Source: Thermodesulfobacteriota bacterium (lineage in GTDB: Bacteria > Desulfobacterota_D > UBA1144 > Nemesobacterales > Mycalebacteriaceae). From it: a stretch of 64,000 bases of DNA. The stretch lies in the NCBI GenBank assembly GCA_965205855.1, contig OZ242184.1, forward strand, positions 480,001-544,000, read 5' to 3'. How positions within the stretch are numbered: the stretch's first letter is position 1; each line of letters begins with the position of its first letter. Positions 7,301 through 8,619 of the stretch are shown here, piece by piece. A program made the translations under genes and the position numbers. The notes below the pieces were generated by a model. The model was not told the origin of the DNA, ran no database searches, and was given only the letters and a program-made list of their open reading frames with translations.

Positions 7301-8619
7301 TAAGTACGGTACAGAACCACCTGAGGGCGCTGGACGGAGGCAACCGTGTGAGCGTTCCACGACATGCGGTTGTAGAGACAGAGGGAGAAGGCAAATACGT
7401 TGAATACGAGAACGTCCGTGAGATGCTGTCTCATCTGGAGTTTGATCTTTCCCTGAACAGTCTGATGGGGTCGAATGAGGAGTGGCGCAAGACCGGTATT
7501 TCGTCCGCCGGTTTAGAGGGTTCGACTGATTTGTCATCGCCGCGGACACTTACCCTGTGGGGAGGAGGAGGCGAGACGCGTCTGGACAACGATTACAATA
7601 CATCCGGTGACGACAATCGCTATGACGGTCGTGTGTGGTCTTACAACACAGGTTTGGATTACCGTCCCTCGGAGTCTTTGACCTTGGGTGCGGCAGTGGG
7701 TTATCTGGACAGTGAACTGACGACCACCTACAACGAAGGCACCTATGATGAGAAGATGGTATCGGTGTCACCGTACCTGCTGTATGAGAGTCCGTGGGGT
7801 CTGGATATATCCCTGTTTGGGGGCTACGGAATAGGAGATGTTGACCTGACGGGGACGTTTGGGCAGGCGAGCACGCCGTTCGCGGCCTCTGCCGACAGTA
7901 ATCTGTTATTTGGCGCGGTGCGTGTGTCGGGTGCGATGAAGTTTTTGGATAACAGTTTGGAAGTGGTACCGAATGTGAGTCTGCTCGGCAGTCGCAAGAG
8001 GCTGGAGGGATATACGGACAGCAGCAACCGTGAGATTGGTGAGACCACGGCGTCAGTGCTTCGCCTGACTCCGGGTTTTGAGGTGAGTTACCGTGTGAAG
8101 TTTTCAGGAGTAACGTTGAGGCCGTTTGCGAGCGGAGGTTTGATATTTGATTTATTAGATACGGTGAATGATGACGATATGACTTACAGTGTTGGCGGTG
8201 GAATGCGTTTTGAAACCGAGGTGGGTTTGAGCGGTTCTGTGGAGGGTCAGCGTGAGCTGGGTCGTGAAGCGGTAGAGCAACGGCGCTTTGTGGGCGCGTT
8301 GTCTTACGGTATTGCTGTGGGCAGGAATGGGAGAGCGGGGACTGTGACGCCGTCTGTAGGTATTAATCACGCATCCGGGGATGATGTGTCTGCAGAGGGA
8401 TTGTCACAGGCATACGTGCTGGAATACACCACGAGAGGTGGAGGCCACAGTATTAGTTTTGAGCATGACAGGTCGGAAGAGGAGGGAGCGCGTTCCGGTC
8501 TGGGTTATCGTTACGGAGCAGAGATTATGCCGGGATTGAACTTGGAGGCAACAGTGTCGTCCCCGAATGTTGAAAAACGTGAGGTTAAGGGATTTGTTGG
8601 CATGAAACTCCGGTTTTAA
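1..8619 (+). CDS. Giant Ig/cadherin-repeat autotransporter-like adhesin, gene 1 (5'-partial). In window: 13 He_PIG-like, 4 cadherin-like, 2 PKD-like, 1 short He_PIG-like and 4 Calx-beta modules, then linker helix and C-terminal beta-barrel
   Basis: Frame is open from base 1 (acc atc agc ggc...), so the GTG at 28 is mid-repeat and not the start. TAA at 8617-8619. Repeat motifs WASFSTTTGALTGTP, FNFADVDGD..LVYTP, LDGSGSSDPEG and FTVTLS..VDYAT..DF. The C-terminus has amphipathic strands ending GMKLRF. Confidence 0.9.
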   Translation, partial: TISGTPATSVAEDSAYSFTPTGADDDGDKLTYAITNMPSWASFSTTTGALTGTPVNADVGDHENIVISVTDGIIATPVALASFDIAVTNTNDAPTISGTPATTVAEDSAYSFTPTGADDDGDKLTYAITNMPSWASFSTTTGALTGTPVNADVGDYEDIVISVTDGIIATPVALPAFAIEVTNTNDAPTISGTPATTVAEDSAYNFTPTGEDADGDTLTWAISNKPDWANFSTTTGALTGTPDNDDVGDYAGIVISVTDGIITTPVALPAFDIAVTNTNDPPTLSGTPATSVAEDSAYSFTPTGEDADGDRLTFAITNMPSWASFDTTTGALTGTPVNADVGDYEDIVISVTDGSIATPVALPAFAIAVTNTNDAPTLSGTPATTVAEDSAYSFTPTGEDVDVGDTLVYAITNLPSWASFSTTTGALTGTPVNADVGDHENIVISVTDGIIATPVALASFDIAVTNTNDAPTISGPPAISVAEDSAYSFTPSAEDADGDRLTFAITNMPPWAAFSTTTGALTGTPANEHVGDHEDIVISVTDGIIATPVALPAFAIEVTNTNDAPTSIGLTVSTEEDTAHSFAAGEFNFADVDGDALHSLRIDTLPGSGSLTLDGAAVTAGDVIPAAGVANLVYTPAANATGDVSFTFSLSDGTAFGATATATVTIGAVNDPPTSIGLTVSTEEDTAHSFAAGEFNFADVDGDALHSLRIDTLPATGSLTLDGTAVTAGDVIVAAGIANLVYTPATNATGDVTFTFSLNDGTAFGATATATVSIGAVNDAPTLSGTPATSVAEDSAYSFTPSGEDADGDRLTWAISNKPDWANFSTATGALTGTPTNEHVGAHEDIVISVTDGIIATPVALPDFDIAVTNTNDAPTLSGTPATSVAEDSAYSFTPTAEDADGDTLTWAISNQPDWANFSTTTGALTGTPANADVGDYADIVISVTDGIIATPVALPAFDIAVTNTNDAPTLSGTPATSVAEDSAYSFTPSGEDADGDRLTWAISNKPDWANFSTTTGALTGTPVNADVGDHEGIVISVTDGIIATPVALAAFAIAVTNTNDAPTLSGTPATSVAEDSAYSFTPTGADDDGDTLTFAITNMPSWASFSTTTGALTGTPANADVGDYEGIVISVTDGIIATPVALPAFAIAVTNTNDAPTISGTPATSVAEDSAYSFTPSGEDADGDRLTWAISNKPDWANFSTTTGALTGTPANADVGNHEGIVISVTDGIITTPVALPAFDIAVTNTNDAPTISGTPATSVAEDSAYSFTPTAEDADGDRLTWAITNMPLWASFDTTTGALTGTPVNADVGDYEDIVISVTDGIIATPVALAAFDIAVTNTNDPPTLSGTPATSVAEDSAYSFTPTGEDDDGDTLVYAITNMPLWASFDTTTGALTGTPANEHVGNHENIVISVTDGIIATPVALPAFAIAVTNTNDAPTSSGLTVSTQEDTAHSFRLGEFTFADADGDDLDSLRIDTLPATGSLTLNGTAVTAGQLIPAAGISNLVYTPAADATGDVTFTFSLSDGTAFSATATATVTIGAVNDAPTSSGLAVSTQEDTAHSFAAGEFNFADVDGDDLDSLRIDTLPGSGNLTLDGNVVTAGDVIPAAGIGTLVYTPPADTTGEVSFTFSLSDGTAFSEPPATATVTITSRATAGDNNAPIAIAIAIPNPASEGATVTLDGSGSSDPEGDDLTYIWRQIDGQTVDLDDDTAAITTFIAPSELVENAELKFDFKVNDGVSDSAGNALVVTVIAGDNDPPTADAGDDQIVEKGATVTLDGSGSSDPEGATLSYVWSQTQGADVTLNDASAQSPTFTVPDTIATGDGILVFSLTVTEAGAGGLSSTADSVEIHIRPLFRDTVSNQTYIRGVAIAALELPTALGRNKTYALVRTGSVPALPTGLTFDAGTRTLSGTPTISGTFDLIYTVTDGEGRTDTLEFAISIAIPATVSISGPGSNVAEGADATFTVTLSASPGDAVVVDYATVAGTATANDDFEETSGTLTFAANTTTLTQSFNVKVLPDAQVEGDESFTATLSANTSSPLPAGFTLGTATATATIEAAGSATVSISGGGNVAEDDDATFTVTLSASPGAEVVVDYATAAGTATADDFTAASGTLTFAAGATGDDLTQTFDVKVLPDEQVEGDESFTATLNTNTLPTGFSLGTQTATATIAGAGSGTVSISGGGNVSEDDNATFTVTLSASPGGAVVVDYATVAGTATANDDFTAANGTLTFAAGATGDDLTQSFDVKVLPDGLVEGDESFTVRLSSNSDNPLPTGITLGTTSAQATIQANGVAVVSIEGPENPVSEGETATFTVTLSDFPVTRMVMGYATLIAADDTATADDFTATDGMLVFDAGTTTLTFTVLVTEDDLAESTETFTVTLSPPNTGLPTGFRLGTASARATIAASGTEDLDRDGRKTLLTHLTIVQSDLVISTVQNHLRALDGGNRVSVPRHAVVETEGEGKYVEYENVREMLSHLEFDLSLNSLMGSNEEWRKTGISSAGLEGSTDLSSPRTLTLWGGGGETRLDNDYNTSGDDNRYDGRVWSYNTGLDYRPSESLTLGAAVGYLDSELTTTYNEGTYDEKMVSVSPYLLYESPWGLDISLFGGYGIGDVDLTGTFGQASTPFAASADSNLLFGAVRVSGAMKFLDNSLEVVPNVSLLGSRKRLEGYTDSSNREIGETTASVLRLTPGFEVSYRVKFSGVTLRPFASGGLIFDLLDTVNDDDMTYSVGGGMRFETEVGLSGSVEGQRELGREAVEQRRFVGALSYGIAVGRNGRAGTVTPSVGINHASGDDVSAEGLSQAYVLEYTTRGGGHSISFEHDRSEEEGARSGLGYRYGAEIMPGLNLEATVSSPNVEKREVKGFVGMKLRF
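5836..7225 (+). repeat. Four tandem Calx-beta-like domains
   Basis: Four copies of TVSI..V.EG..ATFTVTLS....V.VDYAT..GTA...DF...G.L.F....D...EGDESFT.TL. Confidence 0.8.
7231..8619 (+). repeat. Constant translocator cassette, copy 1 (1,389 bp)
   Basis: Starts at gaagacctggatcgtga. Near-identical to 44469-45857 and 57600-59006. Confidence 0.95.

Follow-up and report, generated by a model that had tools for sequence, protein, structure and literature searches.

The locus and its translocator unit

The window analyzed here, a stretch of 64,000 nucleotides from a Thermodesulfobacteriota bacterium (positions 480,001 to 544,000 of contig OZ242184.1, assembly GCA_965205855.1, forward strand), carries on its + strand three very large tandem open frames that end at 8619, 45857 and 59006, and a fourth that begins at 59340. 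Gene 1 (1-8619) is open at its 5' end in the window, belongs to an open frame of 10601 amino acids in the genome, and encodes a giant autotransporter with a Calx-beta/immunoglobulin (Ig)-type passenger; its final residue is a Phe at 8616, followed by the stop codon at 8617-8619. Gene 2 (8715-45857, 12380 amino acids) and gene 3 (45924-59006, 4360 amino acids, with Calx-beta, Big_9, cadherin-like, PKD-like and He_PIG passenger domains according to Pfam) both begin with a basic stretch, a hydrophobic core and an A-x-A site, which by eye is signal-peptide-like. In both, the barrel lies at the C-terminus of the open frame, on a single chain with the passenger N-terminal to it. The subject of this analysis is the 460-residue C-terminal translocator unit shared by the three genes, in which a barrel homologous to that of classical autotransporters is predicted to continue past its usual end and to form an enlarged barrel.

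Residues of the unit are numbered q1-460 after gene 1 (window 7237-8616). The equivalent units lie at 44475-45854 in gene 2 and 57606-59003 in gene 3, with the extension at about 45552-45854 and about 58701-59003, respectively.

Strands 1-12 and the canonical end point

The first part of the barrel, strands 1-12 (+ strand, 7546-8319, q104-361), is homologous to the canonical 12-strand barrel of PF03797. The PF03797 match covers q108-323, scores 82.9 bits (cut-off 26; E 4.1e-23) and spans profile positions 2-219 of 255, leaving 137 residues for the remaining 36 profile positions; the match thus ends before the extension. The earlier, sequence-only reading of this DNA (the first-pass annotation) had counted barrel strands from 7546 (q104) onward, had designated q349-359 (window 8281-8313) as strand 12, and had argued that a normal autotransporter stops near 8313. 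The nine segments that it quoted are all present where it placed them, and its end point agrees with three lines of evidence: the PF03797 span, the alignments to solved autotransporters described below, and the C-termini of homologues.

These homologues came from a HMMER scan of 1.84 billion cluster representatives, which returned 324 matches at E ≤0.001, the best 150 of the 324 being the relatives analyzed. When 152 cut C-terminal domains were aligned with MAFFT, the C-termini fell at q350-369 in 66 cases and at q450-460 in 82, with only 4 elsewhere. The length of sequence past q358 is likewise bimodal among 151 locally re-aligned homologues: 0-19 residues in 67, 60-89 in 64, at least 100 in 12, and other bins in 8. 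As judged from these alignments, the extension is a family trait and is not confined to this genome. A trace of the former terminus also persists, since strand 12 of the extended members retains a relic terminal motif, G-x-hydrophobic-x-Y-x-F/I, with Y in 65 and F in 50 of 79.

The extension is not a standard part of a described family in the libraries scanned. PF03797 was found by Pfam scan in 70 of the 72 extended-type alignment members, and a Pfam search with the extension alone gave a chance-level match (E 0.27). The NCBIfam scan returned no meaningful family, and the ESM Atlas placed the sequences in generic autotransporter clusters only. A phmmer search of the 460-residue unit against PDB sequences gave no match at E ≤1, and the family profile matched EstA as the sole PDB sequence, over strands 2-8. 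When residues 345-460 were searched alone, no homologue of near length was retrieved, only two longer proteins.

Predicted structure of the extended barrel

For structure prediction, an alignment designated A1 was assembled from the query and 71 extended-type matches (72 sequences). From the 76 extended-type matches, P0004, P0006, P0008, P0099 and P0140 (self-copies or longer than 1300 residues) and P0142 were left out, and P0021 was added. With A1, AlphaFold2 produced a model with a predicted local distance difference test score (pLDDT) of 80 and a predicted template modelling score of 0.80, whereas prediction from the single sequence gave a pLDDT of 30 and an unusable model. The A1 model consists of a helix (q2-32) and 16 strands. 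Strands 1-4 span q104-118, 129-143, 148-163 and 168-184; strands 5-8 span q189-208, 213-236, 241-256 and 270-289; strands 9-12 span q292-305, 315-327, 331-341 and 348-361; and strands 13-16 span q368-381, 388-399, 404-413 and 449-458. The former last strand is thus strand 12 of the model.

Strands 13-15 (+ strand, 8338-8475) are modelled as barrel strands at pLDDT 68-90. The terminal strand (+ strand, 8581-8616) has the appearance of a signal for the β-barrel assembly machinery (BAM), with alternating hydrophobic residues and a final Phe; 64 of 79 extended members end in F, and hydrophobic residues occupy positions -3, -5, -7 and -9. This agrees with the first-pass annotation, which had placed the BAM β-signal only after the additional segments. 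It had also listed six such segments with an alternating pattern (q368-378, 391-399, 404-412, 420-430, 434-442 and 450-460). Four of them exceed chance, are conserved in the 72 homologues and are modelled as strands, while the other two lie in an unmodelled insert and have a pattern that fits strands. For strands 13-16, the conserved alternation amounts to even/odd hydropathy differences of 2.0, 1.7, 3.2 and 3.8 across the 72 homologues, equal to or above those of strands 7-12. Two of the 17 nearly invariant columns of the family, P372 and G394, lie within the extension.

When the model was compared with 48,161 PDB chains by a fold comparison independent of Foldseek, autotransporters ranked first: EstA (score 19.4, model residues 1-317), AaaA (17.9, residues 1-349), NalP (17.4, residues 1-353), AIDA-I (16.3, residues 1-353), Hbp (15.9, residues 1-343) and EspP (15.7, residues 1-359). 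The alignments to these solved 12-strand autotransporters extend no further than about residue 359, whereas those to the 16-strand barrels FhaC and CdiB take in the whole modelled barrel. The model therefore supports the view that the extra residues join the barrel and do not form a loose tail.

The region before the barrel is also longer than usual. The predicted linker α-helix (+ strand, 7240-7332, q2-32; pLDDT 85-94) superposes on the pore helix of solved autotransporters, whose alignments start at model residue 1, and about 70 residues separate it from strand 1 at q104. This additional length is real, because the whole 294-residue translocator of NalP aligns to model residues 1-353. Within it lies a conserved motif (+ strand, 7417-7464, q61-76) with the consensus R-x-L-A-x4-F-D-x-S-x3-L, which is common to the extended family and is modelled as small helix and strand elements at a pLDDT of about 70. 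This motif may constitute a second plug element that fills a wider lumen. Compared with genes 1 and 2, gene 3 has 6 inserted residues in the linker immediately ahead of strand 1 (57207-59006 compared with 6820-8619).

Phylogeny and possible origin of the extension

The history of the extension was examined on a FastTree phylogeny built from the columns of strands 1-12 only, so that the extension itself did not contribute. From 155 rows, 12 were dropped (fragments, non-aromatic ends and intermediate lengths), and the 143 that remained comprise 63 without extension, 63 with 45-87 residues and 17 with at least 88; the sample represents the 150 best matches to the query and not the wider autotransporter family. 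The presence of the extension requires 2 changes on this tree, against a shuffled mean of about 47, and an earlier version of the tree likewise gave 2. A three-state extension label requires 4 changes, where the possible minimum is 2. The query falls inside a starred 8-row clade in which 8 of 8 rows have the long extension. The first-pass annotation had suggested a distinct type V subclass, and with extended forms clustering on a tree built without the extension, a coherent distinct subclass is plausible.

As to how strands 13-15 arose, an hhalign comparison of the extension with the core aligns them with strands 9-11 (E 0.0027, probability 11%). The corresponding regions, q289-340 (8101-8256) and q365-413 (8329-8475), both start with a conserved T-hydrophobic-x-P motif. 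A tandem duplication of a double hairpin is a possible origin, to which the alignment gives a weak hint.

A second clade, containing P0095, P0099, P0129, P0140, P0142 and P0152, has extensions of 114-127 residues past strand 12 in a layout unlike that of the query. Three giant autotransporter genes from a congeneric genome (G026) group with it in a starred 9-row clade. Barrels may have grown beyond 16 strands more than once. The phylum of the present genome is represented by 120 genomes in the collection, and a translocator match was found in 1 of 5 congeners, at 24-26% identity. The nearest relatives outside the genome, at 69-70% identity, sit in metagenome-assembled genomes (MAGs) labelled Alphaproteobacteria, which could reflect either horizontal transfer or a labelling issue.

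The clade-specific insert

Most extended members have four extra segments in the alignment. A further stretch of about 30 residues, inserted after strand 15 and ahead of the last strand, occurs in the query, P0005, P0007, P0008, P0009, P0032 and two MAG loci, L006 and L007, which are 69-70% identical to the query. In gene 1, the insert (+ strand, 8494-8562) comprises two amphipathic, alternating segments of 9-11 residues (q420-430 and q434-442), with the 3-residue turn M-P-G between them and a charged stretch of 7-9 residues on either side. These segments are candidates for a hairpin of strands 16-17, with an extracellular loop as the alternative, and AlphaFold2 with A1 modelled residues 416-446 as coil at pLDDT 30-35. 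The congeneric genes of G026, which are 24-26% identical and have extensions of 101-104 residues, contain a comparable hairpin whose first arm carries three aromatic residues on one face; their aromatic faces are stronger than those in the query clade.

Weighing the alternatives

The barrel probably has 16 or more strands, a reading that combines one prediction of good confidence with consistent sequence and phylogenetic evidence. Several points weigh against it. The enlarged barrel comes from one AlphaFold2 model, in which the DSSP string and the fold matches are the basis for closing the barrel from the last strand to strand 1, and for every member of the family it is known from prediction alone. 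The last strand reaches a pLDDT of only 47-61 and the insert 30-35, A1 contained extension-bearing sequences only, and just 5 of its 72 rows carry the insert. The TM-scores from Foldseek are low for every target (TMq ≤0.38). These points leave room for a normal closed 12-strand barrel followed by a 100-residue tail, either a separate small β-rich periplasmic domain or a disordered segment, with the 16-strand model as a prediction artefact. Set against the conserved alternation of strands 13-16, the full-length matches to 16-strand barrels and the terminal Phe at the far end of the extension, this is rather improbable. Enlargement, as proposed by the first-pass annotation, is in this respect borne out by the model; its count of about 18 strands appears in no model. 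Because so few rows of A1 carry the insert, the model is silent for or against 18 strands, and the low pLDDT of the insert can be explained in the same way. A barrel of exactly 16 strands, in which q414-448 would be a long extracellular loop such as a lid or an in-folding loop, draws on the closure of the AlphaFold2 model at 16 strands with residues 416-446 as coil, on the position of the insert, which follows an up strand and precedes a down strand, as expected of an extracellular loop, and on the 63 of 143 rows that manage with a four-strand extension. Long extracellular loops are, moreover, common in outer-membrane barrels. On the other hand, hydrophobic/polar alternation over 9-11 positions in both segments, the tight 3-residue turn and the charged flanks form a membrane-hairpin pattern, and a face of three aromatic residues, as in G026, is unlikely on a solvent-exposed hairpin. 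The layout of the insert fits a membrane hairpin with a periplasmic turn. An exactly 16-stranded barrel in the query clade is accordingly judged unlikely, and 18 strands there, as read from the sequence, are tentatively preferred.

A different question is what the enlargement serves. It had been suggested that a wider barrel passes folded or bulky Ig-type passengers, and whether homologues with the extension always carry them had been posed as a check. The three genes of the window, together with P0005, P0007 and P0008, do combine a long extension with Calx-beta or Ig-type passengers, and a wider lumen would be a reasonable need for bulkier cargo. Ig-type domains nevertheless occur in only about 5 of the 72 A1 members (Calx-beta in 2, cadherin in 2, He_PIG in 1), and typical extended members are proteins of 500-680 residues with a short passenger that contains no Pfam domain. 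Since most extended members carry such short passengers, the enlargement would predate Ig cargo and be independent of it. The genome itself provides a counterexample in two further PF03797 genes of canonical length (G000:C1:13800-16000, L012, and G000:C1:234000-236200, L011). One of them, an open frame of 2963 residues, has a K319L-like PKD domain immediately ahead of the linker and only 52 residues after profile position 212, so that a PKD-type passenger adjoins a barrel of canonical length. Ig-type cargo thus does not require the enlargement, nor is the enlargement restricted to such cargo, and an origin as an adaptation to it is very doubtful. As an unrelated observation on passengers, two of the 72 members match the ubiquitin family (PF00240, best E 3.2e-27) and Rad60-SLD in the passenger region, which is unusual cargo for a surface protein of bacteria.

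Comparison with known secretion systems

The translocators of type Va that match PF03797 (NalP, EspP, EstA, AIDA-I, Hbp, BrkA and AaaA) resemble the present unit in the homology of strands 1-12, in the C-terminal barrel that follows the passenger on a single polypeptide, in the linker helix that superposes on the pore helix, and in the aromatic C-terminal residue. They differ from it in that the solved members have 12 strands and end at what is strand 12 here, whereas the extended family adds 45-127 residues beyond that point and about 70 in the linker that joins the helix to strand 1. Judged by the features that define type Va, the PF03797 match, the layout of passenger and then barrel, and the aromatic β-signal are all present, and the 12-strand barrel is replaced by a larger one in the predicted model. 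The putative counterpart of the pore helix is q2-32, predicted at pLDDT 85-94 and included in the ranges aligned with the solved autotransporters.

The 16-strand Omp85-type transporters of types Vb and Vd (FhaC, CdiB and PlpD) are alike in predicted barrel size only. In contrast to them, the window genes match PF03797 and carry the passenger N-terminally on the same chain, and neither a POTRA nor an Omp85/ShlB Pfam family was found in the last 599 residues (E ≤1) or in the whole 4360-residue protein (E ≤0.001). Inverse autotransporters of type Ve, which have an N-terminal barrel and a C-terminal Ig-like passenger, differ in that the barrel of the window genes is C-terminal.

Strand gain as such has precedents. 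In the portions of two studies available here (eLife 2018, PMC6340704; bioRxiv 10.1101/2023.06.14.544993), outer-membrane barrels gain strands by hairpin duplication and by conversion of a loop to a hairpin. The proposed route from 12 to 16 to 18 strands fits these mechanisms as presented there, its last step being a hairpin-sized insert in an extracellular loop. Those portions concern porins and other barrels, and the word 'autotransporter' has no occurrence in the accessible text of the eLife paper. In the accessible sections of a 2022 classification review, type Va is assigned 12 strands, and reviews, as far as their available text extends, regard 12 strands as a fixed, defining feature of the barrel in classical autotransporters. 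A literature search, its coverage being incomplete and exclusive of supplements, retrieved no description of a classical autotransporter that exceeds 12 strands, which is not proof of absence.

Proposed model and its implications

The three genes probably encode classical, type Va-derived autotransporters whose PF03797 barrel has grown at its C-terminal end. Strands 1-12 correspond by homology to the canonical barrel, to which a family-wide addition of four strands gives a predicted 16-strand barrel, and in the clade of the window genes the further 30-residue insert between strands 15 and 16 would probably contribute one more hairpin, bringing the total to 18. The aromatic C-terminal BAM signal would reside on the new last strand, with the old last strand persisting internally as strand 12. 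Export would presumably follow the type Va route, in which the N-terminal signal peptide directs Sec-dependent translocation, the C-terminal strand primes insertion by BAM, and the passenger then passes through and leaves the linker in the pore. The longer linker, made up of the usual helix and about 70 residues with the conserved motif, would be accounted for by the wider lumen and may help to plug the pore. Taken as a whole, a coherent and undescribed subclass, in which PF03797 barrels expanded from 12 to 16 strands by a C-terminal double hairpin and in at least one clade to 18 by loop-to-hairpin conversion, with a relocated BAM signal and a two-element linker plug, is put forward tentatively.

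The narrow pore of autotransporters is central to a long debate on how passengers cross the outer membrane. If correct, the proposed model would represent the first break of the 12-strand rule common to types Va, Vc and Ve, and would provide three natural barrel sizes (12, 16 and 18) of one fold as a natural test of pore size in autotransport. With such a series one could ask if the width of the pore restricts the cargo, by what means a wide pore is closed once export is complete, and how BAM copes with a former terminal signal that now lies internally. The family would also be a record of strands being gained step by step in a secretion barrel. In annotation, the extension is overlooked because PF03797 spans these domains only in part.

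Identity among the copies and genome context

The first-pass annotation had noted that the extension is identical in protein sequence in the three genes, and the identity in fact reaches over the last 241 residues. Genes 1 and 3 are identical in their terminal 364 residues and 1092 coding nucleotides, as well as in 64 nucleotides past the stop codon (7525-8680 and 57912-59067). Over the last 1380 nucleotides, gene 2 has 24 differing positions. Genes 1 and 2 are unlike in 22 of 460 codons, with 12 synonymous and 10 non-synonymous changes, and from codon 220 to the end there are 4 codon differences, all 4 of them synonymous. The identity of the translocator ends suggests recent duplication or gene conversion. 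Because the copies would be so recent, as the shared 64 nucleotides downstream of genes 1 and 3 also indicate, their identity does not count as independent evidence of constraint.

The 460-residue unit occurs five times in the genome, a single contig of 1.40 Mb, in open frames of 10601, 12381, 4367, 4827 and 1719 amino acids. Together these five paralogous giant autotransporter frames amount to about 33,900 codons, or roughly 7% of the 1.40-Mb genome, which represents a striking investment for a small genome.

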